The notes under the pieces are model-generated. The model had not been told where the DNA came from, searched no databases, and was given only the letters and a program-made list of their open reading frames with translations. A DNA stretch of 64,000 nucleotides from Parcubacteria group bacterium (GTDB taxonomy: Bacteria > Patescibacteriota > Minisyncoccia > JACPHC01): assembly GCA_016188775.1 (NCBI GenBank), contig JACPHC010000010.1, positions 31,333-95,332 of the forward strand, given 5' to 3'. Within the stretch, counting starts at the first letter, position 1; every line of letters starts with the position of its first letter. Shown one piece after another: positions 15,071 to 51,394 of this stretch. The translations under genes and the position numbers were made by a program.

Positions 15071-15210
15071 CCCAGTAGTGAAATTTCGATAGATTTTTTT
15101 TCTGTCATTTGATTATCACTCTCTACTTGGCAAAATATATTTATTATTAACAATTCCGACTTCTTGTCTTAAGAAATCTTAATGACAGAATCGAAATTCT
15201 ACTACTGGGT
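15071..15210. repeat. family B ~140-bp inverted-repeat element copy 1, ending exactly at the ftsZ ATG
   Basis: cccagtagtgaaatttcgat…atcgaaattctactactggg terminal inverted repeats plus inner tctgtcat/atgacaga pairing; ~93% identical copy at 51255-51394. Confidence 0.8.
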
Positions 15211-16374
15211 ATGCCTCGCATTAAACCAAGCATCGAAACATTTGCCAAAATTAAAGTCATTGGCATTGGCGGTTCCGGCTCTAACGCGGTTGACCATATG
15301 ATTGAGCGGCGAATTCAAGGCGTGGAATTTATCGCCATCAACACCGACGCGCAGGATTTGCATCATTCCCGGGCGCCGATTAAAATTCATATCGGGAAAA
15401 ATTTGACCCATGGCTTGGGCGCGGGAATGAATCCCGAAGTCGGCGAAAAAGCGGCTGAAGAAAGCAAGGAGGAAATCCAGGAAGCTTTAAAGGGCGCGGA
15501 CATGATTTTTATCGCCGGCGGTTTTGGCGGCGGCACTTGTTCCGGGGCCTCCCCCGTGGTGGCGGAAATCGCCGATGGCACCGGCGCTTTAGTCGTGGCG
15601 GTCATTACCCGTCCTTTTAGTTTTGAAGGCGCTCACAGAACTCGGATTGCCGATGAAGCTTTTGGCCGGATTGAAAGCCGAGTGGACACTTTAATCAGAA
15701 TCAGCAATGACAAACTTTTATCTTTAATTGACAAAAAAACTCCTCTTTTGAGCGCTTTCAATATTGTCGATGAAGTTTTGCTTCAGGCGGTGCAGGGAAT
15801 TTCCGATATCATCACTTTGCCCGGCATTGTTAATGTGGATTTTGCCGATGTCAAGGCGATTATGGGTCAAGGCGGAGCCTCTCTTTTGGGCATTGGCAAG
15901 GCCTCGGGCCAAGAGCGGGCGATAGAAGCGGCTCGAGCCGCCATGCATTCTCCTCTTTTAGATATTTCCATTGACGGGGCCAAAGGGCTTTTGTTTAACG
16001 TCAGCGGCGGCCCGGATTTGGCTATGTATGAAATCAATGACGCGGCAAAATTGATTACCGAATCAATAGATAAAGACGCCAAAGTTATTTTCGGCGCGGT
16101 TGAGGACGCTCGCCTTAAAAAAGGCGAAATTAAAATCACGATTATTGCCACTGGTTTTGATGATAAACCTTCCAATACCGACGGTGAATTAGGGAAAAAT
16201 GTTTCCAATAAGCCGTTAATTAAGACTGTCGGAGCGGTGGAAAGTTTTTTTGCCAGGGAAAGCAAAGAGGACAAAAATGATAAGAAATCTGAAAATAACG
16301 TTAAGATTGAAGAGAAAAAAAAAGAAGAATCCGACGAGTGGGATATTCCGGCCTTTTTAAGGAGAAAGAAATAA
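15211..16374 (+). CDS. ftsZ: cell division GTPase FtsZ
   Basis: IKVIGIGGSGSNAV; tubulin signature GGGTCSGASPVVAEIA; acidic C-terminal tail. Confidence 0.92.
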   Translation: MPRIKPSIETFAKIKVIGIGGSGSNAVDHMIERRIQGVEFIAINTDAQDLHHSRAPIKIHIGKNLTHGLGAGMNPEVGEKAAEESKEEIQEALKGADMIFIAGGFGGGTCSGASPVVAEIADGTGALVVAVITRPFSFEGAHRTRIADEAFGRIESRVDTLIRISNDKLLSLIDKKTPLLSAFNIVDEVLLQAVQGISDIITLPGIVNVDFADVKAIMGQGGASLLGIGKASGQERAIEAARAAMHSPLLDISIDGAKGLLFNVSGGPDLAMYEINDAAKLITESIDKDAKVIFGAVEDARLKKGEIKITIIATGFDDKPSNTDGELGKNVSNKPLIKTVGAVESFFARESKEDKNDKKSENNVKIEEKKKEESDEWDIPAFLRRKK

Positions 16375-16445
16375 AAAAAGCTCGACTTATCCCCAGAAGA
16401 ACGCCTTGACGGCGTTTTTTGTTCGTCTAAAATAAAGATACTTAT

Positions 16446-18752
16446 ATGTTAAAAAATCCCATCAAACAAGTTGAAAAACGCGACGGCCGGATTGTTGATT
16501 TTGATCAGGCGAGAATCACCAGCGCTATTTACCGGGCCATGGAAGCGGCGAACGAAGGCGATTTGGGTCGGGACCCTCAAAAAGTTTCCGATCGCGTGGT
16601 CAAAGAGTTGATAAAAAAATATTCCAAAGGAGGGATTCCAAAAATAGAAGAAATTCAGGACGTCGCGGAAGAGTCTTTAATTTTATTGGATTTCCCCAAA
16701 GTCGCCAAGGCTTACATTCTTTACCGGCATGAGCGTTCGCTGGTTCGGGAGAAACAAAAATTTATTCCGGAGCGCGTTAAAAAATTAGCCAGCGAGTCTA
16801 AAAAATATTTCCGCAATCCTTTGGGCGAATTTATTTTTTACCGGACTTATTCGCGCTGGATCGAAGAAGAAAATCGAAGGGAAACTTGGATTGAAACGGT
16901 TGATCGCTATGTTAATTTTATGAAAGAAAATTTGGGCCAGCGGCTGAAAGAAGATGAATACGCGACGATTCGCGAGGCGATTTTAAATCAGGAAGTAATG
17001 CCTTCAATGCGGCTTTTATGGAGCGCGGGCAAAAGCGCTAAAGCCACTAATGTTTCGGCCTATAATTGTTCTTATTTAGCACCCTCAAAAATAGAGGATT
17101 TTGCCGAGATTATGTATCTACTGATGTGCGGCGCCGGAGTCGGGTTTTCCGTGGAATCGCAGACAGTTCAAGAATTGCCGATCGTCAAGCGTCAGAATGG
17201 AAAAATAAGAGAGGCTTACGCGATAGCCGACAGCAAAGAAGGCTGGGCCGACGCTTTGACTCTTGGTTTAAAAACTTGGTACGAAGGAGAGGATATTGAA
17301 TTTGATTTTTCCCAGCTTCGGCCGGCTGGAGCCCGTCTTAAAACCATGGGCGGCCGAAGTTCCGGCCCGGCTCCTTTGGTCGCTCTTTTGGATTTTACTC
17401 GGAATAAAATTTTGTCCAGACAGGGAAAGAGATTGAGCAATTTAGATGTTCACGATATTATCTGCAAAATCGCGGATTTGGTGGTGATGGGCGGCGTTCG
17501 GCGATCGGCCCTGATTTCTTTATCGGACCTTGACGATGAAGAGATGCGATTTGCCAAAACCGGACAATTTTACTTGACTGACCCGCAGAGAATGCTGGCT
17601 AATAATTCGGCTGTTTATAATTATCGGCCGACTTCAACCCAATTTTTGGACGAGTGGCTGGCTTTGGCCAAAAGCGGCACGGGCGAGCGGGGAATTTTTA
17701 ACCGCGGCAGTCTAAAAAATCAATTGCCGGAGAGGCGTTGGAAGGTTTTTGAGAAATATTGGCAGACGTCCGGCACTAATCCCTGCGGCGAAATTATTCT
17801 AAGATCGAAGCAATTTTGCAATCTTTCGGAAGTGGTGGCGCGAGCCCAAGATACCGAAGAAACTTTGCTTAGAAAAGTTGAAATAGCGGCGATTTTGGGA
17901 ACTTATCAATCAACTTTCATTAATTTTCCATATATTTCCAAAGATTGGAGGAAAAATTGCGAAGAAGAAAGGTTGCTGGGAGTTTCCATAACCGGCCAGT
18001 GGGATAGTTCGGCCGCCCGATCTCCGGAAATTTTACGAAAATTAAAAGTTCAAGCCGTTAAAACAAATCGTCAATACGCCAAGAAATTCGGCGTTAACGA
18101 ATCAACGTGCGTGACGTGCGTTAAGCCGTCCGGCACGGTTTCGCAATTGGTGGATGCCGCTTCGGGCATGCATCCGCGCCACGCCAAATATTATATTCGC
18201 CGGATCCGTATTTCCGCCACTGATCCGCTTTTCCAAATGTTAAAGGAACAAAAATTTCCCTATCAGCCGGAAGTGGGGCAATTGGAAAATTCCGCCACTA
18301 CTTACGTGTTGGATTTTCCGGTTAAAGCCCCCAAAAGCGCGGCTTTAAGAAACGATTTGACGGCTATGAGTCAGTTGGAGTATTGGAAAATTGTTAAAAT
18401 GAATTACACCGAGCATAATCCTTCCGTGACCATTACCGTTGACGACGGCGAATGGATTGAGGTGGCCAATTGGCTTTATCAAAACTGGGACATGCTGGGC
18501 GGTCTTTCTTTTTTGCCTAAAGAAAAACACGTTTATCAATTGGCTCCTTATGAAGAAATTACCGAAGAGAAATATGTTGAGTTAATGTCTAGAATGCCCG
18601 ATATTGATTTTTCCCAAATTATCGCTTACGAAAAAGAAGATCAGACAACCGGCGCCAAAGAATTGGCCTGCGTGGGCGGAGTTTGCGAAATTGATCCGGA
18701 AGAAGGCAGCGTGCCAACAGCAGAGACAAAAATTATCGCGGCCAGTTATTAA
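16446..18752 (+). CDS. nrdJ: ribonucleotide reductase with N-terminal ATP-cone, probably class II (B12-dependent)
   Basis: ATP-cone (VEKRDGRIVDFDQARITSAI); NPCGEI active-site motif; C-terminal Cys pair; no adjacent NrdB-like gene; class assignment is inference. Confidence 0.65.
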   Translation: MLKNPIKQVEKRDGRIVDFDQARITSAIYRAMEAANEGDLGRDPQKVSDRVVKELIKKYSKGGIPKIEEIQDVAEESLILLDFPKVAKAYILYRHERSLVREKQKFIPERVKKLASESKKYFRNPLGEFIFYRTYSRWIEEENRRETWIETVDRYVNFMKENLGQRLKEDEYATIREAILNQEVMPSMRLLWSAGKSAKATNVSAYNCSYLAPSKIEDFAEIMYLLMCGAGVGFSVESQTVQELPIVKRQNGKIREAYAIADSKEGWADALTLGLKTWYEGEDIEFDFSQLRPAGARLKTMGGRSSGPAPLVALLDFTRNKILSRQGKRLSNLDVHDIICKIADLVVMGGVRRSALISLSDLDDEEMRFAKTGQFYLTDPQRMLANNSAVYNYRPTSTQFLDEWLALAKSGTGERGIFNRGSLKNQLPERRWKVFEKYWQTSGTNPCGEIILRSKQFCNLSEVVARAQDTEETLLRKVEIAAILGTYQSTFINFPYISKDWRKNCEEERLLGVSITGQWDSSAARSPEILRKLKVQAVKTNRQYAKKFGVNESTCVTCVKPSGTVSQLVDAASGMHPRHAKYYIRRIRISATDPLFQMLKEQKFPYQPEVGQLENSATTYVLDFPVKAPKSAALRNDLTAMSQLEYWKIVKMNYTEHNPSVTITVDDGEWIEVANWLYQNWDMLGGLSFLPKEKHVYQLAPYEEITEEKYVELMSRMPDIDFSQIIAYEKEDQTTGAKELACVGGVCEIDPEEGSVPTAETKIIAASY

Positions 18753-18815
18753 TTTACGAATTATTTGTTTTGTCATTGCGAGTCGGGAGCGAAGCAATCT
18801 CGCGATTATTTTTTT

Positions 18816-18916
18816 AAAGCCGGTCTAATCCGGCGGTCGTAAACTTTTTGGGTGTTTTTACTCTTTGGAGTATTGATCCTGAAAAAGGATGAAGGCCGCC
18901 GGATTAGACCGGCTTT
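18816..18916. other. long hairpin (23-bp stem, ~55-nt loop with an inner hairpin) downstream of the RNR gene
   Basis: aaagccggtctaatccggcggtc … ggccgccggattagaccggcttt, nearly perfect complement; possible terminator or sRNA. Confidence 0.5.
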
Positions 18917-19062
18917 GTCTACTTCATGCTCTAATAATAATTTTTAATTATTTTTTTTATTTTGTTATAATATTTCAAGCATTTACTTGCTATCGCTTAT
19001 AAATGCTAAAATGGATAGTTTATAGTTTTAAGTTTAAAAATTATTAATCTATTTTAAAATCT

Positions 19063-19623
19063 ATGTCTTTTGGTCCAGGAGTTGTGCAACGGAAAATTTT
19101 ACTTCTACTTTTAGGCGGGTTATCTCTTAGTTTTTCCAGATCGCCGCGGCAATATTTTAGTATTCTTAAAGAAATAAGAAAAAAGTGGAAAAAAATAAAT
19201 CAGCAATCCTTGCAGCGAGCAATAAGAAGTTTATACAAGAATCGTCTCATCACTGAAAAATATAATCGTGACGGAACAATTACGCTTGCGCTTTCCGATG
19301 CCGGCCGTAAGCGCGCTTTGATTTTTAACCTAAATGAAATGTCAATCAAGAAACCGAAGACGTGGGATAAAAAATGGAGAATTATTTTGTTTGATATCCC
19401 TGAAAATAGAAAAAAAATACGGGAAGCTTTACGTTTTCATCTTCAACGTTTAGGTTTTAGACAATTGCAGAAAAGCGTTTTTGTTTATCCTTATCCTTGC
19501 GATGATGAGGTGGATTTTCTTATTGAATTTTATCAAATTAAATCTTTTGTCAGAAAAATGTTCGCTGTTTCGATTGATAATGAATTGTATTTTAAACAAA
19601 AGTTTTCTCTTTTTAATAGTTAG
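19063..19623 (+). CDS. PaaX-family-like transcriptional regulator, short form (winged HTH plus PaaX middle domain, no C-terminal domain)
   Basis: N-terminal wHTH-like region (…LALSDAGRKRA, compare PaaX YSLSDKG); WDKKWRIILFDIPENRKKIREALRFHLQRLGFRQLQKSVFVY resembles the PaaX WDGKWLLLL…GFG core and is Cas2-fold-like. Confidence 0.5.
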   Translation: MSFGPGVVQRKILLLLLGGLSLSFSRSPRQYFSILKEIRKKWKKINQQSLQRAIRSLYKNRLITEKYNRDGTITLALSDAGRKRALIFNLNEMSIKKPKTWDKKWRIILFDIPENRKKIREALRFHLQRLGFRQLQKSVFVYPYPCDDEVDFLIEFYQIKSFVRKMFAVSIDNELYFKQKFSLFNS

Positions 19624-19781
19624 TTGGCTAATTAGAATAGCAATTTGATTAGTTAATAACTACATTATAGATTTTATTTTTAGCACTTAATCGCGATAGC
19701 AAGTAAGTGCTAAAAATAGTTAATTTAGCTAGTAAAGATAATTAAACTAATACTTGATTTTATTTAATTAAATTTTTAATC

Positions 19782-21206
19782 TTGTCTAATATGTCTAAAT
19801 CTCGGATTTTTTTAATTTGGCTTCTTTGTTTTATTGCCGGAATTTTTTTCGCTTCTTATATCAGTTGGCCGAAATTATTTTTAATATTTTTATCCATTGT
19901 CTCTTCGGCGGTTATTCTGGTTTTTAGAAAAGAAAAAATTATTTTTATTTTTGCGGGCGGAATTTTGATTTTTAGCCTCGGATTTTTAAGAATCGCGGGA
20001 ATCGCGGAGAAAAAATCGACGCTTGATCAATATTTAGATAAAAAAATTATTAGCCGAGGAATAGTAATGGCCGAGCCAAAAACAAAAGGAGAATCAACCA
20101 GTTTTCTTTTGGAAATTAGGGGAGAAAAAATTCAAATCAGAACCCGAAATTATCCGATTATCAATTATGGCGACGAATTAGAAGTTCAGGGCCAGCTTAA
20201 ATCGGTTCAAAATTCCGCTATCCGCTACGCTCTCAATTGGCCCAAAATTGAAATTCAAAAAAAAGATCAAGGGAATTTTTTCAAATCCAGTCTTTTTAAA
20301 TTAAAAGAAAAATTCAGCCAAAATATTTCTCAAAATATGCCCGAACCCGAAGCCTCGCTGCTGGCCGGCTATATTTTCGGCTCCCGAAATCTTCCTTCGG
20401 ATGTCGAGCAAAATTTTAAAACCCTCGGCCTTTCCCATATCGTCGCGGTTTCCGGTTTTAATTTAAGCGTTATCGCGCTTTTTATCAGTCAAATTTTTAC
20501 TTATTTTAATTGGCCTCGTTTTTTGAAATTTTGGAGCGCCGTTTCCATTATTTTTCTTTTTGTTTTAATGATCGGTTTTCCGTCTTCGGCCATGCGGGCC
20601 GCGATTATGGCTATTTTAGTTTTAGTGGCGGAAAAAGAAGGCCGCTTGTACGAATCCGCTCATGCCATAATTTTTGCCGGCGCTCTGATGCTTTTATTGG
20701 ATCCTTTAATTTTGCGTTTTGACCTGGGGTTTTCTTTGTCGTTCTTAGCGACTTTGGGGCTGATTTTTCTCTCGCCGATTTTACCGAAATATCTGCCTCA
20801 ACTCGTTTCCCAGACTTTGGCCGCCCAAATTTTTGTTTTACCGGTTCTGCTTTTAAATTTCGGCGTCGTCTCTCCCTACAGTTTATTGGTTAATTTTTTG
20901 ATTTTGCCCTTGGTGCCTCTGGCCATGCTTTTAGGATTTTTAGCCGGCCTGACTGGTTTTATTTTTCAAATTTTGGCCGAAATTATCAGTTGGCTGGCTT
21001 GGCCGATTTTATTTTATCAAATTAAAATCGCTCAATTTTTTTCTTTTTTCCCTTACGCCAAGATTAATTTCGGAAAAATCAGTTTGATTTTCGCCTTTAT
21101 TTATTACGCGGCGATTGGATTTATTATTTTTAAAAATAGAAATAAAGTACCCACTTCCACTTGCGGCGCTGATGTTTTGTTGGGGCATAATAAGCAGGTA
21201 TCCTAA
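19782..21206 (+). CDS. comEC: ComEC/Rec2 DNA-uptake channel, membrane part (DUF4131 + competence domain)
   Basis: Polytopic membrane protein; competence-domain motif LSHIVAVSGFNLSVIALF; the stop codon lies inside a family A repeat. Confidence 0.75.
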   Translation: MSNMSKSRIFLIWLLCFIAGIFFASYISWPKLFLIFLSIVSSAVILVFRKEKIIFIFAGGILIFSLGFLRIAGIAEKKSTLDQYLDKKIISRGIVMAEPKTKGESTSFLLEIRGEKIQIRTRNYPIINYGDELEVQGQLKSVQNSAIRYALNWPKIEIQKKDQGNFFKSSLFKLKEKFSQNISQNMPEPEASLLAGYIFGSRNLPSDVEQNFKTLGLSHIVAVSGFNLSVIALFISQIFTYFNWPRFLKFWSAVSIIFLFVLMIGFPSSAMRAAIMAILVLVAEKEGRLYESAHAIIFAGALMLLLDPLILRFDLGFSLSFLATLGLIFLSPILPKYLPQLVSQTLAAQIFVLPVLLLNFGVVSPYSLLVNFLILPLVPLAMLLGFLAGLTGFIFQILAEIISWLAWPILFYQIKIAQFFSFFPYAKINFGKISLIFAFIYYAAIGFIIFKNRNKVPTSTCGADVLLGHNKQVS

Positions 21207-21280
21207 AAAATTTTTGAGGTCGAGGCTCTTTAATGAAATTATATAATCCGCCGAGGGGACCTAAAAATTTTTAGGATACC
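21197..21280. repeat. family A hairpin element copy 2 (A2 subtype)
   Basis: gtatcctaaaaaattttt-GAGGTCGAGGCTCTTTAATGAAATTATATAATCCGCCGAGGGGACC-taaaaatttttaggatac; arms differ from A1 copies but remain mutually complementary. Confidence 0.8.
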
Positions 21281-21362
21281 TACGAAATTAGAAAAGATAA
21301 AGGCGATTTAAAAAATCTATTTCCGAAGCCTTGCTATAAAGTATTCGGCGAATACGTAAAAA

Positions 21363-22259
21363 ATGCTTAAGAAAATTATTAAAAATAAAAAAGGTTTAAT
21401 TTTCGGCTTTTTCGGGTTTTTAATTTTAGCCAATTTTTTAATCTGGACTTCGGTTTTCAGTAAAGCCGAGAGCCGATTTTTGCGCGTTTATTTTTTTGAC
21501 GTCGGCCAGGGAGACGCGATTTTTATTGAAACTCCGGGAAACAATCAAATTCTCATTGATGGCGGGCCGACCGATAGAATTATGGAAAAATTAGGCCGAA
21601 CTATGCCATTTTACGACCATTCAATAGATTTGATTATTTTGACTCATCCGCACGCGGATCACGTCAGCGGCCTGATTAATGTTTTAAAAAATTATGAAGT
21701 CAAAATGATTTTAATGAGCGATGTCAGCTATAACACGGCCGAATATCAGGAATTTTTAAGGCTGGTTAAAGAGAAAAATATTCCGGTTATTTTTGCCGAA
21801 CCGATGCGTTGGCGCTTGTCCAGCGGCGTTATTTTAGATATCTTAAACCCAGCGCAAGATTTGCAAGGAATTAGTTTAAAAAATGTTCATGACGGGGCGG
21901 TGGTCGGTCAATTAAAATACGGCCGAAATATTTTTCTTTTGACTTCGGATATTGAAGAAAATATAGAAAAACAACTTGTTCTGGCTTATGGCGATTCCTT
22001 GAATTCCGATATTTTAAAAGTCGGACATCACGGATCGAAAACTTCATCCTCTCCGGAATTTTTGAAAACAGTTTCTCCAAAAATTTCAGTAATTTCGACT
22101 GGCCGGAAAAACCGTTACGGCCATCCGCATCAAATAACGCTTGATCGTTTGCGAGAAATTGGCAGCCAAATTTTTCGCGCTGATCTGGACGGAGATATTG
22201 AGATTAAAAGCAACGGTGATATAATGGAAATAGATCTGTCGCGTAATAATTTTCGGTAG
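21363..22259 (+). CDS. ComEC-type metallo-beta-lactamase domain protein (separate ORF)
   Basis: N-terminal TM helix; FFDVGQGDAIFIETP…LTHPHADHVSGL…VGHHGSKTSSS: MBL-fold motifs typical of the ComEC C-terminal domain. Confidence 0.75.
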   Translation: MLKKIIKNKKGLIFGFFGFLILANFLIWTSVFSKAESRFLRVYFFDVGQGDAIFIETPGNNQILIDGGPTDRIMEKLGRTMPFYDHSIDLIILTHPHADHVSGLINVLKNYEVKMILMSDVSYNTAEYQEFLRLVKEKNIPVIFAEPMRWRLSSGVILDILNPAQDLQGISLKNVHDGAVVGQLKYGRNIFLLTSDIEENIEKQLVLAYGDSLNSDILKVGHHGSKTSSSPEFLKTVSPKISVISTGRKNRYGHPHQITLDRLREIGSQIFRADLDGDIEIKSNGDIMEIDLSRNNFR

Positions 22260-22307
22260 AAAGGTTATTACGCGACAGATCTAAGAATTAAATGAAATAG
22301 AAATAAA

Positions 22308-22775
22308 ATGAAAGAACGAACCTTGATTATAATTAAACCCGACGCTCTCCAAAGAAATCTTTTGGGCGAGATTATTTCCCGTTTTGAGAAAAAAGGGTTA
22401 AAAATTATCGGTTTTAAAATGATGGAATTGGGCGACGTTCTTTTGGAAGAACATTACGCTCATCATAAAGATAAAAGTTTTTTTGCCGGTTTGAAACGTT
22501 TTATGAAAAGTTCGCCGGTGATTTTGACGGTTCTTGAGGGCCCGAATATCATCAAAAGCGTTAGATTGATAGTCGGTCCGACTCGGGGATACGAGGCTGA
22601 CGCCGGAAGCATTCGGGGAGATTTTTCAATGAGCGCCCAATACAATATCGTTCACGCTTCGGATTCCCTAGAAAACGCCGAAATAGAAATCAGAAGATTT
22701 TTTGCCCCGGGAGAGCTTTTCGATTATCCCAAAGTTGATTTTGAATGGATTTATTCGGAGGAAGAGATTAAATAA
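22308..22775 (+). CDS. ndk: nucleoside diphosphate kinase
   Basis: ERTLIIIKPDALQRNLLGEIISRFE; NIVHASDS active-site His region. Confidence 0.85.
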   Translation: MKERTLIIIKPDALQRNLLGEIISRFEKKGLKIIGFKMMELGDVLLEEHYAHHKDKSFFAGLKRFMKSSPVILTVLEGPNIIKSVRLIVGPTRGYEADAGSIRGDFSMSAQYNIVHASDSLENAEIEIRRFFAPGELFDYPKVDFEWIYSEEEIK

Positions 22776-22782
22776 TGTCGGA

Positions 22783-23523: not shown

Positions 23524-23526
23524 ATT

Positions 23527-24255: not shown

Positions 24256-24297
24256 ACGGATATAATATAATTTTTTACCAGAAATAGCGAATGCCTC

Positions 24298-42258: not shown

Positions 42259-42278
42259 CTTAATTAGAACACATTAGC

Positions 42279-42686
42279 ATGTTATCGCCAAAAAAAGTAA
42301 AACATAGAAAATGGCATAAGGGTCGTTCCCGCGCCAAAGTCGCCGCCAGGGGCGCTAAATTAAGTTTTGGCAGTTTTGGAATTAAAGCTGAAGGAGAGCA
42401 GTGGATTAATGCCAGACAAATTGAAGCGGCGCGCCGAGCTATTATCCATTTTATTGAAAAACGCGGCAAAATTTGGGTCAGAATTTTCCCGGACAAACCA
42501 GTGACGACTAAAGGCAATGAAGTGCCGATGGGTCACGGAAAAGGCGCGGTTGATCGTTACGTGGCGCCGGTTAAGCCGGGGCAAGTTATTTTTGAAATCG
42601 ACGGCGTCACTAAAGAAATAGCTCAAAAGGCCATGTATCGAGCGGCGGCGAAATTGCCGGTTAAAACAAGATTTATTTCAAGATAA
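42279..42686 (+). CDS. rplP: ribosomal protein L16
   Basis: MLSPKKVKHRKWHKGR…. Confidence 0.9.
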   Translation: MLSPKKVKHRKWHKGRSRAKVAARGAKLSFGSFGIKAEGEQWINARQIEAARRAIIHFIEKRGKIWVRIFPDKPVTTKGNEVPMGHGKGAVDRYVAPVKPGQVIFEIDGVTKEIAQKAMYRAAAKLPVKTRFISR

Positions 42687-42710
42687 AATTATGATAAATA
42701 TGATAAATAA

Positions 42711-42791
42711 GTATCCTAAAAATTTTTGAGGTCGAGGCACTTTAATGAAATTATATAATCTGCCGAGGGTACCTAAAAATTTTTAGGATAC
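42711..42791. repeat. family A hairpin element copy 3 (A2 subtype) in the L16-L29 spacer
   Basis: gtatcctaaaaatttttGAGGTCGAGGCACTTTAATGAAATTATATAATCTGCCGAGGGTACCtaaaaatttttaggatac. Confidence 0.8.
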
Positions 42792-42803
42792 TTATTAAAC
42801 ATT

Positions 42804-42986
42804 ATGAAAATAAAAAAATTAAAAAATAAATCTTTTGAGGAATTAAAAAAAACGCTTGCCGCCGCAAGAGCTAAATTGAAATCTTTGCGATTTGAAAGAG
42901 CTCTGGGCGGAAAGATAAAAGACAATCAAGAGATGAAGAAAACTAAAAAAGAAATTGCCAGAGTTTTAACTTTAATAAATTTATGA
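42804..42986 (+). CDS. rpmC: ribosomal protein L29
   Basis: [31 protein letters not shown]. Confidence 0.85.
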
Positions 42987-43216: not shown

Positions 43217-43227
43217 ACTAATTTTTT

Positions 43228-43593: not shown

Positions 43594-43594
43594 C

Positions 43595-43900
43595 ATGAAA
43601 ATAAAAAAAGGAGACAATGTGTTAATTATCGCGGGAAAAGATAAGGGTAAAAAAGCCCCGGTGATTAAGGTTTTTCCAAAAAATAAATCTATTTTAGTTG
43701 AAGGAGTAAATTTGGTAAAAAAGCACCGGAAACCGAAAAAATCCGGCGAAAAAGGCGAAATTATAATTTTGCCCCGGCCTTTTTCCGTTTCCCGCGTTAT
43801 GTTGGTCTGTCCAAGATGTTCGAAGCCCGCCCGCGTTGGAATTAAAATCGAAGGAAATAAAAAAAACCGTTTTTGTAAAAAATGTCAAACGTCAATTTAA
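43595..43900 (+). CDS. rplX: ribosomal protein L24 (KOW) with C-terminal CxxC…CxxC tail
   Basis: MKIKKGDNVLIIAGKDKGKK…; C-terminus CPRCSKPARVG…CKKCQ. Confidence 0.85.
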   Translation: MKIKKGDNVLIIAGKDKGKKAPVIKVFPKNKSILVEGVNLVKKHRKPKKSGEKGEIIILPRPFSVSRVMLVCPRCSKPARVGIKIEGNKKNRFCKKCQTSI

Positions 43901-44442
43901 ATTTAAAAGATAAATACGAGAAGAAAGTGATCGCGGAAATGATGGAAAAATTCGGATATAAAAGCCGTCTTAATGTTCCGCGTCTGGAAAAAGTCGCGAT
44001 TAACGTCGGCATTGGCAGACTGGCTCAAGCCAAAGACGAGAAAAAAATAGAACGAATCAAAAACAGTTTCGCCTTGATCGCGGGCCAAAAACCGGCCTTA
44101 GCTCGGGCTCGAAAAGCGATTGCCGGCTTCAAAACAAGACAAGGAATGGTCATCGGTTTTTTCGCTATTTTAAGAGGAAATCGAATGTATGATTTTTTAG
44201 ACAGACTTATTTATATCGCTTTGCCGCGGACTCGAGATTTTCGCGGCTTGGAAGAAAAATCCATTGATCAGGGAGGAAATTTGACTATTGGCGTAAAAGA
44301 GCATATTGTTTTTCCGGAAATACAAGCCGAGTCTCAAGAAACTATGTTCGGTTTTCAAATTACCGTTGTCTCCAACGCTAAAAAAAGAGAAGAAGCGGTC
44401 GAATTATTTAGATTACTCGGTTTCCCCATTAAAAATGGCTAA
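43882..44442 (+). CDS. rplE: ribosomal protein L5
   Basis: …[14 protein letters not shown]…. Confidence 0.9.
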
Positions 44443-44620
44443 AGAATCACAAATTGCCAGAGCCCTGAAAACCCCCAAGTTTTCCACTCGGGTTATTCGG
44501 CGCTGTTTTATTTGCGGACGACGGAGGGGCTATATCAGAAAATTCGGCCTTTGCCGGATAGACTTCCGTTCCCTGGCTTTAAAAGGGGAAATTCCGGGCA
44601 TTAAAAAATCTTCGTGGTAA
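44435..44620 (+). CDS. rpsZ: ribosomal protein S14 type Z (zinc-binding, 61 aa)
   Basis: [41 protein letters not shown]; ORF-track start at 44306 is too far upstream, ATG at 44435 fits. Confidence 0.85.
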
Positions 44621-44631
44621 TCCCGTTAGAA

Positions 44632-44714
44632 ATTAAAAAGGCAAAATCAATGTTTTATAGCATAAAAAAGTCAAATAATAATTATAATAATCTTGTTAGA
44701 AATTTTCTAACGGG
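44632..44714. repeat. family E inverted-repeat element copy 1 in the S14-S8 spacer
   Basis: cccgttagaaatt … aattttctaacggg 12-bp arms around ~57 nt; second copy at 56016-56080. Confidence 0.65.
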
Positions 44715-44729
44715 ACTATTCCTAACGAG

Positions 44730-45119
44730 ATGAACGATCCTATTTCAGATATGTTAGCGCGAATAAAAAACGCTCAAGCGGTTCAAAAAGAAACCGTGAC
44801 GGTTCCGTTTTCCGAAATTAAATGGCGGATCGCTGAAATTCTTAAAGCCAACCATTATATAGATGACATTGAAAAAAAAGGCAAGACCGTTAAACGTTTT
44901 ATCGCCATAACTTTGAAATATATTGACGGAAAACCGGCCATTGTCAGTTTAAGGCGAGTTTCCAAGCCGGGACAAAGATTGTATATTCAGTCAAAAGACT
45001 TGAGGCCGTTTAAGAGCGGATTTGGGTTAAGAATTATTTCCACCTCAAAAGGACTGATGACTAATCTGGAAGCAAAAAATTTGAAATTAGGCGGAGAATT
45101 AATTTGTGAAGTTTGGTAA
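44730..45119 (+). CDS. rpsH: ribosomal protein S8
   Basis: MNDPISDMLARIKNA. Confidence 0.9.
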   Translation: MNDPISDMLARIKNAQAVQKETVTVPFSEIKWRIAEILKANHYIDDIEKKGKTVKRFIAITLKYIDGKPAIVSLRRVSKPGQRLYIQSKDLRPFKSGFGLRIISTSKGLMTNLEAKNLKLGGELICEVW

Positions 45120-45663
45120 TATGAGTCGAATCGGTAAAAAATCTATTTTAATTCCGACGGGCGTTAATGTCGCGATTGTTGACGATGTAGTTAAAGTTGA
45201 AGGCCCGAAAGGAAAATTGGAACGACATTTGAGTCCGGGGATTAAAGCTGAAGTTAAGGATAACGGTATTTTTGTTTTTCCAACCGGCAAAAACGGAATG
45301 TCCCGTCTTTGGGGTCTTGAACGCAGTCTTTTAGCCAATATAGTAGCGGGAGTTTCTCAAGGATTTGAAAAAATATTGGAATTTGAAGGCATTGGATTTA
45401 AAGCGGAAATTCAGGGCGATGATTTAGTTTTAAGTTTGGGCTTTAGTCATCCGATACGAATTAAAACTCCGGCCGGAATTGCTCTTAAAGTTGCTAAAAA
45501 CATGATTTATATTTCAGGCATTAACAAAGAATTGGTTGGCGAGACGGCGGCGAAAATTCGCGCTCTTAAAAAACCCGAACCCTACAAAGGCAAAGGCATC
45601 AGATATCAAGGAGAGATTATTAGAAGAAAAGCCGGCAAAAAAGCCGTTGCTTCGGCCGGTTAA
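45106..45663 (+). CDS. rplF: ribosomal protein L6
   Basis: SRIGKKSILIPTGVNVAIV…. Confidence 0.9.
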   Translation: MKFGNMSRIGKKSILIPTGVNVAIVDDVVKVEGPKGKLERHLSPGIKAEVKDNGIFVFPTGKNGMSRLWGLERSLLANIVAGVSQGFEKILEFEGIGFKAEIQGDDLVLSLGFSHPIRIKTPAGIALKVAKNMIYISGINKELVGETAAKIRALKKPEPYKGKGIRYQGEIIRRKAGKKAVASAG

Positions 45664-45672
45664 TAAAATGAT

Positions 45673-46026
45673 ATGTCTAATCTTCGTGTAAAAAATCAAA
45701 GCCATAGAATAAGAAGACATAAAAAAGTCCGGGCTGTCATTTCGGGCAGCGCCGAGATACCTCGTCTTTATGTTTTTCGTTCCTCTAAACATATTTACGC
45801 CGCCATTGTGGATGATAAAACGAGCAGAACCTTGACCCAAGTTTCAGATTTAGACATTAAAAAAGGTTTAAAGAGCGAAAAGGCCGGTTTGATTGGAAAA
45901 AAAATAGCCGAGGCGGCTAAGAAAATAAAAATTAAGAAAGTGGTTTTTGATCGCGGCGGCTATAAATATCACGGACGGATCAAGCAATTGGCCGAGGCGG
46001 CCAGACTGGGAGGATTAGAATTTTAA
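45673..46026 (+). CDS. rplR: ribosomal protein L18
   Basis: …[19 protein letters not shown]…[26 protein letters not shown]. Confidence 0.9.
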
Positions 46027-46036
46027 GACCTTTTAT

Positions 46037-46552
46037 ATGGATACTAATAAAGAAAAAGAAATAAAAAAAGAAACAAAATTTTCCGGCGGAAAAAGGCTTG
46101 AAAAAGACGCTTTTGATTCCAAGGTCCTGGATTTAAGAAGAGTGGCGCGGGTGGTGGCTGGCGGACGGCGTTTTAGTTTTCGGGCGACGGTCGTGGCCGG
46201 CAATCGCAAAGGCGAGGTCGGAGTGGGTATAGCCAAAGGCTTGGATGTCCAGCAATCGGTTAATAAAGCGACTCGAATGGCTAAAAAAGATTTAATTCGG
46301 GTTTCGTTCAGAAACGGCACTATCGTTCACGAGGTGGACGGAAAATTTGGGTCGGCTTTCGTTCGGCTCAAGCCGGCCGCCAAGGGACGCGGGATTATCG
46401 CCGGTGGGGCGGTTAGGACCGTTTTATCCTTGGCCGGCCTGTCCGACGTCACTTCCAAAATTATTTCCACTTCTTCCAATAAATTAAATATCGCCCGCGC
46501 GACTTTGGAAGCGTTAAAGCATTTAAAAAATAAAAATAGACCTACTGCTTAA
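46037..46552 (+). CDS. rpsE: ribosomal protein S5
   Basis: …VLDLRRVARVVAGGRRFSFRATVVAGN…. Confidence 0.9.
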   Translation: MDTNKEKEIKKETKFSGGKRLEKDAFDSKVLDLRRVARVVAGGRRFSFRATVVAGNRKGEVGVGIAKGLDVQQSVNKATRMAKKDLIRVSFRNGTIVHEVDGKFGSAFVRLKPAAKGRGIIAGGAVRTVLSLAGLSDVTSKIISTSSNKLNIARATLEALKHLKNKNRPTA

Positions 46553-46710
46553 TAACCTTTTCTACTCCAATGATAATTTTTCGGCTACAAACAACTCACC
46601 GCTCGTCAATGAATACGTTGCGTTCACTTCCTCGCGTTTCGTTGTTTTCGCTCGAAAAATTATCATTTCGCTACGAAAAATTATTAAGCAGTGGGTCTAA
46701 ATAAAAACAT

Positions 46711-47112
46711 ATGCAGCTCCATCAAATTCAGCCAATTCATAAAGGCAAAAAATCAAGGAGAATCGGCCGAGGGGGAAAGCGGGGCAGTTATTCCGGCCGG
46801 GGCATTAAGGGTCAAAGATCCAGAGCGGGCGCTCGGATCAGGCCGGCTATCCGCGATTTAATTTTACGGCTGCCGAAATTAAGAGGCGCCCGTTTTAAAT
46901 CTCTCAAAGAAAAATCCGTCGCTTTAAATATCAAAAAAATCGGAAGATATTTTTCCGATGGAGATAAAATTAATCTCGAGGCGTTAGAGAAGGCCGGACT
47001 AATAAATCGTTTTGGCGGGAAATTGCCGGAGGTGAAGATTATTGGCCAAAATTTTTCCGGTAAAAAATTTGAATTTGAAGGGATAAAATTATCTAAGAGT
47101 ATTAATAAATGA
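46711..47112 (+). CDS. rplO: ribosomal protein L15
   Basis: MQLHQIQPIHKGKKSRRIGRGGKRGSYSGRG. Confidence 0.9.
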   Translation: MQLHQIQPIHKGKKSRRIGRGGKRGSYSGRGIKGQRSRAGARIRPAIRDLILRLPKLRGARFKSLKEKSVALNIKKIGRYFSDGDKINLEALEKAGLINRFGGKLPEVKIIGQNFSGKKFEFEGIKLSKSINK

Positions 47113-48374
47113 AAATTCCGCGCGTTTTACAAGATCCGGATTTAAGAAAAAAGATTTTTTGGGTTTTAGCGATCCTGGCGGTTTTTAGATTGGCGGCTTC
47201 TATTCCGGTTCCCGGAGTCAATCCGGACGCTCTGCGGGCTTTTTTCGCCCAGAATCAATTTTTTAATCTTTTAAATTTATTTTCCGGCGGCGGACTGGAG
47301 AATCTTTCCATTGTTATGCTGGGCGTGGGGCCTTATATCACCGCCTCGATTATTATGCAGCTTTTTACGATTATTTTTCCTAAGCTTAAAGAGATGCATG
47401 AGGAATCGGGCGAGCAGGGCCGGGCTAAATTTAATCAATACACGCGTTATTTGACAGTCCCTTTAGCTTTCCTTCAGGCTTTTGGACTTATAAAATTGCT
47501 TTCCCGACAGGGAGTTTTTGGAGAGACGACAACTTTTTCTTTTATCACTAATCTTGTTGTCGTGGTGGCCGGCACTTTATTTTTAATGTGGCTGGGCGAA
47601 ATTATTTCCGAATATAAAATCGGCAACGGCATTTCTCTTTTGATCTTTGCCGGCATTGTCGCCCGTCTGCCAAGAGAAATTTTGAATCTAGCTTTAAGTT
47701 TCAATGTTTCCCAGTTGCCTTACATTATCGGTTTTGTTTTAATCGGCCTTTTAGTTATCGCGGCGGTGGTATTTGTCACCGAAGGTGAAAGAGATATTCC
47801 GGTTTCTTACGCCAAACGGGTTCGGGGAACGCGGATGTACGGCGGAATTTCCACTCATCTGCCGCTTCGGGTTAATCAGGCCGGAGTGATCCCGATTATT
47901 TTCGCTCTTTCGATTATACTTTTGCCGGGTATGATTGCCACTTTTTTATCAGCGGCTAAATTTGAAACTCTGGCTAAAATCGCCTCCAGTCTCGCCAATC
48001 TTTTCAATCGCCAGAGCTTTTACGGCGGCCTTTATTTTATTCTGGTTGTTGTTTTCACGTATTTTTACACGGCCATCGCTTTTGATCCCAAAAAAATATC
48101 CGAAAACATCCAGAAACAAGGCGGATTTATTCCCGGGATTCGGCCGGGCAGCCACACGGTTGATTATTTGTATAAAATAGTCAATCGGATTACTTTAGTC
48201 GGCGCTATTTTTCTCGGACTAATCGCGATTTTGCCGTTTATCGTTCAGACTTTTACCAAAATTAGCACTATTACCATTGGCGGCACCTCGCTTTTAATCG
48301 TGGTCAGCGTTGTTTTGGAAACAATTAAACAAATTGAAGCGCAAATGGTCATGCGCGAATATGATACCGTTTAA
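47109..48374 (+). CDS. secY: preprotein translocase SecY
   Basis: 10-TM profile; …GVNPDAL…GIMPYITASIIMQL-like segment. Confidence 0.9.
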   Translation: MKIPRVLQDPDLRKKIFWVLAILAVFRLAASIPVPGVNPDALRAFFAQNQFFNLLNLFSGGGLENLSIVMLGVGPYITASIIMQLFTIIFPKLKEMHEESGEQGRAKFNQYTRYLTVPLAFLQAFGLIKLLSRQGVFGETTTFSFITNLVVVVAGTLFLMWLGEIISEYKIGNGISLLIFAGIVARLPREILNLALSFNVSQLPYIIGFVLIGLLVIAAVVFVTEGERDIPVSYAKRVRGTRMYGGISTHLPLRVNQAGVIPIIFALSIILLPGMIATFLSAAKFETLAKIASSLANLFNRQSFYGGLYFILVVVFTYFYTAIAFDPKKISENIQKQGGFIPGIRPGSHTVDYLYKIVNRITLVGAIFLGLIAILPFIVQTFTKISTITIGGTSLLIVVSVVLETIKQIEAQMVMREYDTV

Positions 48375-48969
48375 AAAAGGAATTGTTATAGCTTTTTTGG
48401 GGCGTTCCGGGTCCGGCAAAGGAACGCAAGCGAATCTTTTGGCGAAAAAATTTAATTTGAGAATTATTTCGACGGGCAATCTGGCTCGCGATTTTTCCAA
48501 AGAGAAATCAATGAGCGGAAAATTAATCGCTCAAATCCTGGAAAAAGGCGGATTTTTGCCTCATTGGCTGGCCAGTTTTTTATGGATGAGAGAAATAATC
48601 CAGAGTCAAGAACCTTTTTTGAGAATAGCGTTTGAAGGGTCGCCCAGAAAATCGGGCGAAGCTCGCGATATTGACGAGGTTTTTAATTTTTACGGCTTGA
48701 AAAATAATATTATCGCGTTTTATATTAATATCTCTCGCCAAGAAGCGATTAAAAGATTGCTTGCCAGGGGACGGGAAGATGATACAAAAAAAGCCATTGA
48801 AAATCGGTTGGATGAATTTGAAAAATTTGTCATTCCGGTTATTGAATATTACAAAAAAACTAAAAGACTAATCACCATTAACGGTCAACAGAGCGTGGAA
48901 GATGTTTTTAAAGAAATCGTCAAAAAACTAAAAGTAAAGAATGATTGCTCGATCCGAAAACGAAATTAA
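48361..48969 (+). CDS. adk: adenylate kinase
   Basis: IVIAFLGRSGSGKGTQANLLAKKF (P-loop); ORF-track start at 48310 is probably too far upstream. Confidence 0.8.
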   Translation: MIPFKKGIVIAFLGRSGSGKGTQANLLAKKFNLRIISTGNLARDFSKEKSMSGKLIAQILEKGGFLPHWLASFLWMREIIQSQEPFLRIAFEGSPRKSGEARDIDEVFNFYGLKNNIIAFYINISRQEAIKRLLARGREDDTKKAIENRLDEFEKFVIPVIEYYKKTKRLITINGQQSVEDVFKEIVKKLKVKNDCSIRKRN

Positions 48970-49702
48970 AAAATTAAGAGAAGCCGGCGGTATTTTAGCC
49001 GTGATTTTAAACGATGTCGCTAAGAAAGTTGTTCCCGGCATCTCGACTTTTGAACTTGATCAATACGCCGAAGAAGCTATTTTAAAATCCGGCAGTCAGC
49101 CGTCTTTTAAGGGTTATCGTCCGTGGGGCGTGGCAACGGCTTATCCGGCCAGTCTTTGCGTTTCCGTAAACGATACGGTTGTTCACGGATTGCCTTCTCA
49201 AAGACGCTTGAAAGAGGGAGAGATTATTAGTCTTGATTTAGGCTTGGAATGGCAAGGGCTTTTCGTGGACGCGGCCTTGACCGTTTCGGTCGGAATTCCC
49301 TTGCCGGAAATAAAGAGATTTTTGGAAATTACAAAACATTCTCTTGACATTGGCGTTGAAAAAGCGAGAGTCGGCAATCATATCGGCGATATCGGAGCCG
49401 CTATTGCCGATTACGCGGAAAAAGCGGGTTATTCAATAATTCGCGAACTGGTCGGACACGGCGTGGGAGAAGCGGTGCACGAGCCGCCGCAAATCCCGAA
49501 TTTTGGCCGGCCCGGCTCCGGCCCTTTGATCTTGGAAGGCATGGTTCTGGCCATTGAACCGATGGTCAGTCTTGGAAAATTTGACGTGATTTTAGCCGAT
49601 GACGGCTGGAGCTGGAAAACTAAAGACGGCAGTTTGGCGGCTCATTTTGAGCATACGATTTTGGTGACTAAAGAAGGGCCGGAGATTCTAACTAAAATCT
49701 AA
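48941..49702 (+). CDS. map: methionine aminopeptidase type I
   Basis: …VVHGLPS…DLGLEWQGLFVDAA…ELVGHGVGEAVHEPP…. Confidence 0.9.
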   Translation: MIARSENEIKKLREAGGILAVILNDVAKKVVPGISTFELDQYAEEAILKSGSQPSFKGYRPWGVATAYPASLCVSVNDTVVHGLPSQRRLKEGEIISLDLGLEWQGLFVDAALTVSVGIPLPEIKRFLEITKHSLDIGVEKARVGNHIGDIGAAIADYAEKAGYSIIRELVGHGVGEAVHEPPQIPNFGRPGSGPLILEGMVLAIEPMVSLGKFDVILADDGWSWKTKDGSLAAHFEHTILVTKEGPEILTKI

Positions 49703-49716
49703 TTTGTAAAATTTTA

Positions 49717-49906
49717 CAGCGTTGTTTACATTATCCTGCAGGTAATGAGCGCGAAAACACGCTATCAAATTTCCCAGCGAGAAATTTTCGCTTGTTTTCG
49801 GGCTCGCTCGTCTCCCTGCGGGAGACACCTGCCCGCTCGCCTTGCGAGACAGCTTTCTTAGCTCATTACCTGCAGGATACAATACATAAAAGTGTAAACA
49901 ACGCTC
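49717..49906. other. ~190-bp structured element with long two-part terminal inverted repeat and GC-rich hairpin interior
   Basis: cagcgttgtttaca…ttatcctgcaggtaatgagc at the left pairs with gctcattacctgcaggatac…tgtaaacaacgctc at the right; inner hairpins tctccctgcgggaga and gcgagaaattttcgc. Confidence 0.55.
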
Positions 49907-49928
49907 GGAATTCTTAAATCTAATTATT

Positions 49929-50312
49929 ATGCGTTATCTTGGTGTTGATTTTGGGACGAAAAAAATCGGTCTGGCTATTTCCGACGAGAAAGGCCAGATG
50001 GCTTTTCCGCTTCAGACGATCCTTTATAAAAGCGATCGTTTTGTTTTCGCTCGGCTTAAAGAAATTGTTGAAAAAAATCAAATTGAGCGGATTGTGGCCG
50101 GATTACCCGTCAGCATTCAAAAAACTCAAACGGATATTTCAAAGAAAGTTGAAAGATTCGCTCAAAAACTTTCCCAATCGACTGATCTTTCCGTTGATTT
50201 TGAACGGGAATTTATGACTACTAAAATCGCCAAAATCAGTTCGTCTAAAAAAATTGACGAAGCCTCGGCGGCCTTGATTCTCCAAAGTTATTTGGACAGA
50301 AAGAATCGTTAA
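49929..50312 (+). CDS. ruvX: Holliday junction resolvase-like YqgF/RuvX
   Basis: MRYLGVDFGTKKIGLAISDE. Confidence 0.85.
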   Translation: MRYLGVDFGTKKIGLAISDEKGQMAFPLQTILYKSDRFVFARLKEIVEKNQIERIVAGLPVSIQKTQTDISKKVERFAQKLSQSTDLSVDFEREFMTTKIAKISSSKKIDEASAALILQSYLDRKNR

Positions 50313-50362
50313 GGTATAATAATATTATAGACTTCTTGCGAAATAATTTTTTAAAAATCCAT

Positions 50363-50512
50363 TTCCTTCGCTTATAATGATTAAAGAAGTTATTCTAAAA
50401 ATTTTTAAGGTCGAGGCGCTTTAATTAAATTATATAATCCGCCGAGGGTGCCTAAAAAATTTTAGAATAACTTCTTGTTATTATTCTGAAAAATTATTTC
50501 GCAAAAAGTCTT
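50363..50512. repeat. family A hairpin element copy 4 (A1 subtype) forming the 5' region of the GT2 gene
   Basis: Same TTATAAT + arm + core + arm + conserved tail as copy 1; ends at the ATG of the 50513 gene. Confidence 0.85.
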
Positions 50513-51262
50513 ATGAAACCATATTTATCAATTATTATTCCGGCTTATTACGAAGAGCATCGGATTGAAAAAACGCTTCGCGAGTCGGATAAATATCTGC
50601 GATCTCAAAAATACGATTACGAAATTTTAGTCGTTAACGACGGTTCAAAAGACAAAACCGCTGATGTCGTGAAAAGGCTTGTTTCGGAAATCGCGAATTT
50701 AAGATTGATTGACAATAAAATCAATCAAGGCAAGGGTAGCGTGGTTAGGCAAGGAATGCTGGAGGCTCAAGGCCAGTTTCGGCTTTTTATGGACGCGGAT
50801 AATTCAGTTTCTTTAGATCAGGTCGCGAATTTTTTTCCTCGTCTTTGCGGCGCCAAAAACGCCGGTTCGGAATGTTTTGATATTGTTATTGGCTCGATTG
50901 AGGTGGAGGGCGCTAAAATCGAAGAGCAGTCCCAGTGGTATCGGAGAGCTTTGGGGAGATTTTCCAAATATTTAATCAGATTGATTTCCGGCCTTCGGGA
51001 GATTCACGATTCCCAGCGGGGTTTTAAAATTTTTTCGGAAAAGGCCGCTTTGCGAATATTTCCCAAACAGACAATCGCGCGCTGGGGTTTTGATATTGAA
51101 ATTTTGCTTATTGCCAAGCGTCAAGGATTTAAAATCAAAGAGGTGCCGGTGGTTTGGATTAATCCGCCGGAATCCAAAGTGACTTTAAAGGCTTATATTA
51201 AAACTTTCGGCGAGCTTTTGAAAATCAAATGGAATGATATAAGAGGAAGATATGCCCAGTAG
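50513..51262 (+). CDS. family 2 glycosyltransferase (dolichyl/polyprenyl-phosphate glycosyltransferase-like)
   Basis: LSIIIPAYYEE…VVNDGSKDKT…DAD: GT-A fold motifs. Confidence 0.8.
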   Translation: MKPYLSIIIPAYYEEHRIEKTLRESDKYLRSQKYDYEILVVNDGSKDKTADVVKRLVSEIANLRLIDNKINQGKGSVVRQGMLEAQGQFRLFMDADNSVSLDQVANFFPRLCGAKNAGSECFDIVIGSIEVEGAKIEEQSQWYRRALGRFSKYLIRLISGLREIHDSQRGFKIFSEKAALRIFPKQTIARWGFDIEILLIAKRQGFKIKEVPVVWINPPESKVTLKAYIKTFGELLKIKWNDIRGRYAQ

Positions 51263-51394
51263 TGAAATTTCGATAGATTTCTTTTCTGTCATCTGATTAT
51301 TACTCTCTACTTGGCAAAGTATATTTATTATTAACAATTCCGACTTCTTGTCTTAAGAAATCTTAATGACAGAATCGAAATTCTACTACTGAGT
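51255..51394. repeat. family B inverted-repeat element copy 2, ending at the galT ATG
   Basis: cccagtagtgaaatttcgat … atcgaaattctactactgagt. Confidence 0.8.

Follow-up and report, generated by a model that had tools for sequence, protein, structure and literature searches.

A probable family of non-autonomous DNA transposons in Candidate Phyla Radiation bacteria that inserts preferentially at (T/C)ATG, often at start codons

[quoted passage not shown] The Correia elements of Neisseria (CREE/NEMIS) can change the expression of the adjacent gene, and RNase III binds or cuts them (PMC2649163). Here we describe Family B, a repeat with two copies in a 64,000-nucleotide stretch (the window) of contig JACPHC010000010.1 from a Parcubacteria-group metagenome-assembled genome (MAG), one copy standing directly before ftsZ and the other before a GalT-like gene. 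Like Correia elements, Family B is about 100-150 bp long, has terminal inverted repeats and a target duplication, carries no transposase gene and would be co-transcribed as an RNA hairpin. Our analysis indicates that Family B is probably a non-autonomous DNA transposon, a MITE, of the Candidate Phyla Radiation (CPR)/Patescibacteria, and that it inserts with a 4-bp duplication, preferentially at (T/C)ATG.

Family B differs from Correia elements in the sequence of its arms, its CPR host, its 4-bp (T/C)ATG duplication and its strict orientation to the downstream gene, and no conserved core, IHF site or end-generated promoter is detectable in it. The target duplication of Correia elements is TA. 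Neisseria REP2 and the Borrelia inverted repeats lie immediately upstream of genes, include the ATG start and have been described with a promoter and a ribosome-binding site (PMC3184786). In Family B, by contrast, the ATG is regenerated by the target duplication, the host genomes are free of Shine-Dalgarno (SD) signals, a promoter is unsupported and mobility is shown by empty sites. Rickettsia palindromic elements (RPE) are small palindromic mobile elements at or in genes, which are not destroyed (PMC10969869). While RPE are inserted in frame and translated within the host protein, Family B has stops in three frames and lies outside the open reading frame (ORF), at the start codon. Mycobacterial MIRUs are short operon repeats in one orientation, with small ORFs that overlap the flanking stop and start codons, which suggests that translational coupling is preserved. 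Unlike Family B, MIRUs are tandem direct repeats with neither terminal inverted repeats nor a target duplication. REPINs/RAYT and the IS200/IS605-derived PATEs are, like Family B, doublets that form hairpins, in which a variable spacer separates conserved arms of ~20 nt, and their insertion is polar and linked to a tetranucleotide. They make no target duplication, whereas the flanks of Family B co-vary and the tetranucleotide is single in empty sites. The IS1380 and piggyBac-type transposons, whose termini begin CC(C) as in Family B, which duplicate 4 bp and which have a defined target of four bases (piggyBac uses TTAA, Family B TATG), offer a lead only. The arm sequence was found in no paper searched, and the MITE reviews consulted mention neither insertion at a start codon nor regeneration of one by target duplication. 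We class Family B as a new MITE family, with an unusual, polar target that coincides with start codons.

Coordinates of the two copies are positions of the window, with all features on the forward strand; copy A is the one at ftsZ and copy B the one at the GalT-like gene. A repeat search of the window paired 15067-15213 with 51251-51397, 147 nt each, at 97% identity and with five differing positions. The element itself measures 139 bp in each copy, ends in 20-nt terminal inverted repeats and has TATG on either flank. In copy A the upstream TATG (15067-15070) is followed by the left arm, or GTGA arm, CCCAGTAGTGAAATTTCGAT (15071-15090), which is near-invariant and identical in 11 of the 13 elements described below. 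The A/T-rich interior (15091-15189) belongs to a subfamily specific to the host genome and contains an inner stem (15101-15108 / 15182-15189). The right arm, or GTAG arm, ATCGAAATTCTACTACTGGG (15190-15209) is the reverse complement of the left arm with two mismatches (18/20), and the downstream TATG (15210-15213) contains the ftsZ start codon at 15211-15213. The upstream ATG (15068-15070) retains the native ftsZ leader 5′ of itself and, together with the left arm, forms an insertion-created mini-ORF (15068-15112) that would be translated as MPSSEISIDFFSVI before a stop. Copy B repeats this arrangement with its upstream TATG at 51251-51254, the same left arm at 51255-51274, the interior at 51275-51373, a right arm with one G-to-A change (ATCGAAATTCTACTACTGAG, 51374-51393; three mismatches to the reverse-complement arm, 17/20) and the downstream TATG at 51394-51397, whose last three bases (51395-51397) start the GalT-like gene. 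Its mini-ORF (51252-51296) has two synonymous changes relative to copy A and would likewise read MPSSEISIDFFSVI then stop. Within the window there are four arm matches, against 0.01 expected by chance.

The original prediction of a repeat pair with terminal inverted repeats at 15071-15210 and 51255-51394 is borne out by the 20-nt arms at both ends of both copies, while its figure of ~93% identity is not, since there are five mismatches in 140 nt (~96%). The adjacency of the element to the ftsZ and galT starts likewise stands, except for the exact end: because TATG flanks each copy on both sides, a single T lies between the element and the ATG. Folding, the first check proposed, predicts one long hairpin on either strand, with sense-strand energies of -44.1 and -42.2 kcal/mol (z = -6.2 and -4.6) for the two copies and an antisense strand that folds equally well. 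The inner pairing tctgtcat/atgacaga noted earlier (15101-15108 / 15182-15189) belongs to this predicted fold.

Relatives have empty sites. A relative from another sample (L024), whose GalT is 74% identical, has the same gene order of RuvX, glycosyltransferase family 2 (GT2), GalT, TIM and PGK. Its junction, …agaggaaaaTATGcctaaa…, holds a single TATG (…aaaTATGcct…), and its GT2 gene ends …GKYA*, overlapping the GalT ATG. With the element and one TATG removed, the window aligns across this junction, with 128 of 163 columns identical, and the upstream TATG of copy B corresponds to the one present once in L024. In the window the GT2 gene (50513-51262) now takes its final codons and stop from the element, ending at the left-arm TAG (51260-51262; …GRYAQ*) and no longer overlapping galT. 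The GalT/HIT-family gene (51395-52411, 338 aa) is intact by its Pfam match, and NCBI calls the same 338-aa protein. At the other locus, ftsZ (15211-16374, 387 aa) begins at the regenerated ATG and is intact by Pfam (Tubulin and FtsZ_C) and by its homologues. Two FtsZ relatives, L020 and L021 (81% and 62% protein identity), have the same ATG start (MPRIKP / MPQIRP) and a single (C/T)ATG at the homologous position. Their ftsA-ftsZ spacers, a comparison proposed earlier, are without the element. As the target is single and the element missing in syntenic relatives, the window copies are insertions with a 4-bp target-site duplication.

The original prediction also spoke of an ftsA-ftsZ spacer, but ftsA does not adjoin ftsZ in the window: the gene directly upstream is a small ORF at 14573-15055, between ftsA and ftsZ, for a coiled-coil protein of 160 aa. 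This ORF contains six near-perfect tandem repeats of 33 nt and is missing from L020 and L021, in which just 51-61 nt separate ftsA from ftsZ.

Further copies were sought with an arm scan that covered one genome per species and metagenome contigs and required an exact 20-mer. The scan gave 19 loci, five of which (L003, L007, L009, L011 and L012) were judged chance single-arm matches; L003 and L009 fall in coding sequence, the latter in a Cas6f-like ORF. The remaining loci supplied 11 independent elements beyond the window, which with the window's two make the 13 elements considered here and answer the earlier proposal to look for more copies. The arm 20-mer had no match in viral contigs or in plasmid or phage collections. 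The additional elements come from public genomes and metagenomes of CPR bacteria (Gottesmanbacteria-like, Taylorbacteria and others), with at least three CPR lineages represented; the hosts include, besides the window's MAG, a Taylorbacteria MAG and a MAG labelled Gammaproteobacteria. The title "uncultured Gammaproteobacteria" is attached to the MAGs of L001 (CAYSEV010000026.1) and of L002/L005 (CAYHQU010000022.1). For the L001 MAG at least, the sole one tested, this label is probably a mistake, because its Dcd is 77-92% identical to Gottesmanbacteria (CPR) proteins.

The 13 elements are 116-140 bp long. Every one has one GTGA and one GTAG arm, and the two arms differ at positions 10-11 in every copy. 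Only the arms are common to all; the interiors are A/T-rich, lineage-specific and unrelated between members, and stops in all three forward frames in 13/13 elements leave no coding capacity. Near-invariant arms with a fixed two-base difference between left and right have the look of transposon ends recognised by a protein. A single 11-kb contig holds two copies plus a remnant. There are also ~40-nt mini-hairpins that are barely more than two arms, at L004 4362-4401 and L005 4960-4998 (CCCCGTAGTGAAATTTGCAATCAAATTTCTACTACCGAGG; CCCAGTAGTGATCCCGCAGCATTACGGTATCATCTGGGC). The L005 mini-hairpin directly follows a full element with only TATA between, an arrangement that suggests the same site was hit repeatedly and an internal deletion followed.

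When all are oriented so that the GTGA arm comes first, seven elements have the flanks TATG/TATG, and the others have CATG/CATG (L001), TAAA/TAAA (L004), CATA/CATA (L010), CATG/TATG (L015), TATG/TATA (L005) and GTG/ATG (L014). Because the variant flanks co-vary (CATG/CATG, TAAA/TAAA and CATA/CATA), the duplication is genuine. A further empty site is found at dcd, where L022 and L023, with Dcd 92% identical to that of L001, have a single CATG in place of the CATG-element-CATG of L001; 13-14 of 15 upstream nucleotides match, and no gaps are needed in the alignment. A 2-bp (TA, IS630-like) or a TG…CA (IS3-like) reading of the ends is at odds with the flanks. An ancient conserved insertion at dcd was also rejected, since the site is empty in the closest relatives and the signature of a translated arm is missing from others. 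The NCBI protein for the L001 dcd (P0121), a call of the Prokaryotic Genome Annotation Pipeline (PGAP), is 12 residues too long, with the right arm read through (MAKPYIEILRLG-MILSD…).

Judged from sequence, and apart from an identified autonomous partner, Family B shows every testable mark of a MITE: terminal inverted repeats, a duplication that is single in empty sites, small size without coding capacity, and dispersal. Of the two alternatives in the original prediction, it is the MITE that the evidence favours, through the terminal inverted repeats, the 4-bp duplication, the empty sites (at both window loci and at L001) and the 11 further CPR copies.

Ten of the 13 elements have a right-hand ATG at which a real gene starts. 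These ten genes encode FtsZ, the GalT-like protein, Dcd (at two loci), an MBL-fold hydrolase, a small NrdD-tail protein, AtpF, RuvB, SSB and a GT4 glycosyltransferase. The Pfam domains begin at residues 2-3 in the DCD, SSB and Lactamase_B_3 proteins, and RuvB, ATP-synt_B and FtsZ are found in other downstream genes. The GTAG arm is proximal to the gene in 10/10 start-codon insertions (p = 0.002), and L010 is the sole TATG-type site with the opposite polarity. Overlapping upstream genes now end …(Y/H)AQ* within the left arm, and the upstream ATG heads an ORF of 8-24 codons beginning MPSSEIS. At L010 (2229-3193) the reversed element adjoins a DinJ/RelE-type toxin-antitoxin pair and, on the other strand, abuts a possible 39-aa hydrophobic ORF (MQKVALIIKSL…).

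The locus L006 (positions 1-1667) has a full-length nrdD 3′ end, ~200 nt, the element, and then an 88-aa stand-alone duplicate of the NrdD C-terminus with its Zn-ribbon and glycyl-radical motif (RVVGYIRP). That the element had split nrdD was considered and rejected, as the frames differ and the full nrdD 3′ end lies upstream. In the manner of GrcA, the duplicate may serve the anaerobic ribonucleotide reductase as a "spare part".

How far these positions call for a special preference depends on how often TATG is a start codon. T precedes the start codon (TATG) in 44/70 ATG-initiated genes of the window (63%), compared with 29% T window-wide. Start contexts in the window are A-rich at -6/-7, and SD motifs occur in 4/76 leaders, by crude gene calls that number 76-81. 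The TATG/CATA sites of the window comprise ~223 in coding sequence, 44 at start codons and 20-23 that are otherwise intergenic, so that 44 of 64-67 non-coding sites, about two thirds, are start codons. An element that seeks TATG and survives only outside coding sequence would therefore meet a start codon about two times in three. On these counts, an excess of 10 of 12-13 elements at starts is not significant (p = 0.17-0.30). Outside the window, again by crude gene calls, starts make up ~36% of the non-coding TATG sites in the loci, and the excess would then be significant, which is weak evidence; the probability of at least 10 of 12 is 8.5e-4 at a start fraction of 35% and 0.17 at 66%. The start-codon position would thus follow largely from the target motif, whose sites were counted directly, together with selection, which we infer. 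Special targeting of start codons is largely deflated by the TATG site counts.

On the RNA side, a search of the whole window against Rfam 15 at gathering thresholds gave 0 matches. The terminal stem is the only structure common to the 13 elements, with 0 compensatory changes in 23 consensus pairs and a covariation term of +0.83. Mutations in the arms break stem pairs, which indicates that the arms are conserved as sequence and not as structure. The same arms stand before at least eight unrelated gene families, and in the nearest relatives no element precedes ftsZ, galT or dcd. The element is also absent from other Dcd relatives with extended N-termini, and is sporadic among close relatives. 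Sigma-70-like matches in the element are weak (7-9 of 12), although CPR promoters may follow other rules. An outward promoter within the element is unsupported, the best -35/-10 scores being weak and the two orientations equal (summed 109 vs 102). The element does make up the entire proximal leader of ftsZ and galT, as had been claimed of their 5′ untranslated regions, and that part of the claim stands. Nothing supports the exaptation of a MITE as a leader: the interiors are unrelated, promoter-likeness is independent of orientation, and occurrence is sporadic in close relatives.

Taken as a MITE, Family B would be moved by a DDE-type transposase acting in trans, which would make a 4-bp staggered cut at (T/C)ATG, and its two non-identical ends would make integration polar relative to the asymmetric TATG. 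Insertion regenerates an intact ATG beside the GTAG arm and does not touch the downstream ORF. The old ATG is left heading the short ORF (MPSSEIS…), and the TAG-TGA of the left arm closes any upstream gene that overlapped the start. Ribosomes that end the upstream gene at the TAG of the arm, or that translate the mini-ORF from the native leader, may then cover the left arm and thereby free the right arm and the AUG. Translational coupling of this "RNA unfolding" form is documented (PMC12548453), and in our analysis it appears to be the most economical explanation of downstream expression. An alternative route would be cleavage of the stem by RNase III, as in Correia elements, a MITE whose hairpins RNase III does act on (PMC2649163).

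Several observations weigh against reading Family B as a DDE-type MITE of this kind. Strict polarity is unusual for DDE-type MITEs, and the promoter, fold-energy and stop-codon tests gave no explanation for it. Stop codons were set aside as a cause because there is no real difference between the orientations (forward stops in 13/13/13 elements per frame, reverse in 12/13/10), and fold stability because forward and reverse energies are similar. Three elements have flanks that are untidy or disagree by one base (L005, L015 and L014). No arm pair more than 200 nt apart, as expected of an autonomous partner, was seen in the 19 loci, although exact 20-mer scans would miss a diverged partner, and no transposase was present among the 10 neighbouring ORFs of L005 and L014, all housekeeping genes. 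The null model rests on crude gene calls, and 13 elements are a small sample. Finally, the predicted hairpin pairs the start codon, with the flanking UAUG in the stem, in 10/10 start-codon copies, at predicted energies of -37 to -55 kcal/mol in these ten and -28 to -55 across all 13; these genomes rely on an open region around the start, and a paired start codon should hinder SD-independent initiation.

A more specific claim may be made for the start codon itself, namely that it serves as a specialised safe landing site, at which integration into TATG in one orientation regenerates the ATG, and the hairpin and mini-ORF keep ftsZ, ssb, ruvB and atpF translated from their native leaders. What keeps up translation would be either unfolding driven by ribosomes or initiation that bridges the stem at its base. 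We put this forward tentatively, as a possible but somewhat doubtful refinement of the MITE reading.

It is also conceivable, though unlikely, that the element is now a start-codon module under selection, which couples or throttles translation through its hairpin and mini-ORF or insulates operons; a MITE origin is compatible with this. Outside the window 8 of 10-11 elements lie at a start although only ~36% of non-coding TATG sites are starts, orientation is uniform in 10/10 cases, and dcd has been hit in two lineages, with only 51% identity between their Dcd proteins. The element is moreover tolerated at the essential genes ftsZ, ssb, ruvB and atpF, and both mini-ORF differences between the window copies are synonymous, although two such changes carry no statistical weight. 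On the window's own counts the excess at starts loses significance, and the closest relatives at ftsZ, galT and dcd lack the element, which points to sporadic and recent insertion. The unrelated interiors and the lack of any orientation-specific promoter or stop-codon feature argue in the same direction.

Strict polarity, a tetranucleotide target and a hairpin-forming element would equally suit an element of the single-strand (HUH/Y1) kind, like IS200/IS605-PATE or REPIN/RAYT, which would insert 3′ of TATG on one strand and bring its own right-end TATG, with no true duplication. REPs carry a GTAG motif, as do the arms of Family B. L015 has the left flank CATG and the right flank TATG, as this account predicts, and the ~40-nt arm-only mini-hairpins (in L004 and beside the L005 copy) also agree with it. 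Where flanks are not TATG, however, they deviate identically on both sides, which an element-borne right end would not do, and the inverted repeats run to the very termini with no separate subterminal hairpins. The opposite polarity of L010 is a further difficulty, and no Y1 transposase was seen, though no systematic search for one was made. We consider such an element improbable.

The hybrid flanks of L015 (CATG/TATG) and L005 (TATG/TATA) could also be understood as exchange inside a common AT core, had an IS110/IS492-like or integrase-like enzyme recombined the element site-specifically at a TATG core in fixed orientation, which would account for the polarity as well. IS110-type elements do not typically have perfect terminal inverted repeats, a recombinase of this kind was not found, and the flanks TAAA/TAAA, CATA/CATA and CATG/CATG are impossible from a TATG donor core, all of which makes this mechanism very improbable.

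The weakest account, the shared cis-regulatory RNA leader of ftsZ and galT offered in the original prediction in place of mobile DNA, has in its favour a stable sense-strand fold and a position at the 5′ end of both genes, and it is rejected, as far as sequence analysis goes, as having next to no probability because flanking duplications and empty sites prove insertion, FtsZ and GalT relatives have leaders without the element, unrelated genes share the arms, the antisense strand folds equally well, and there is neither covariation in the one common stem, where breaks are uncompensated, nor an Rfam match, nor a conserved interior.

The window contains other repeats. Family A, of ~163 nt and unrelated to Family B, occurs at 10160-10322, 21206-21287, 42666-42828, 50345-50507 and 52647-52809 and has the appearance of a mobile element inserted where genes meet. 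The two ends (AGACTTCTTGCGAAATAATTTTT … AAAAATTATTTCGCAAAAAGTCT) appear to be inverted, the right one adjoins the T-ATG of genes at 10334, 50513 and 52816, and the repeat holds a promoter-like site, TTTAAA-17-TATAAT. That Family A also sits on TAT(G) start contexts in the same operon fits such sites being simply permissive. In L024 the RuvX-GT2 spacer is 17 nt and GalT and TIM overlap by ATGA, compared with ~200 and 400 nt in the window. Two direct repeats of 31 nt (TCATTTGTCATTGCGAG…), 38 nt apart, also lie in the GalT-TIM spacer of the window (52501-52569) and are absent from L024. A perfect 20-bp palindrome is present in two copies (6822-6881 and 61307-61366) at intergenic, terminator-like positions; these contain GTAGTGAA(A)T, a 10-mer that the arm of Family B also has, and in one copy CACTACTGG comes next. 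A large ORF at 61791-63737 has several Cys-rich repeats of ~54-97 nt (GGCGGNCCNGGNGG…TGCCG…TATTGC).

The mobile elements of CPR/Patescibacteria are barely characterised, and Family B bears on how a transposon persists when genomes are very compact: the 4 bp that it prefers as a target are also the local context of start codons, so that an insertion repairs itself. There are consequences for annotation, as the PGAP start of one dcd falls 12 residues too early by way of the right arm, and operon spacers in the window are largely recent insertions. The copies are also natural constructs, in which essential genes stand behind a hairpin that pairs the AUG and have no SD, and they make SD-independent initiation and coupling in CPR bacteria testable. 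If true, the landing-site reading would mean a mobile element that targets start codons and is compatible with translation, in bacteria without Shine-Dalgarno initiation.

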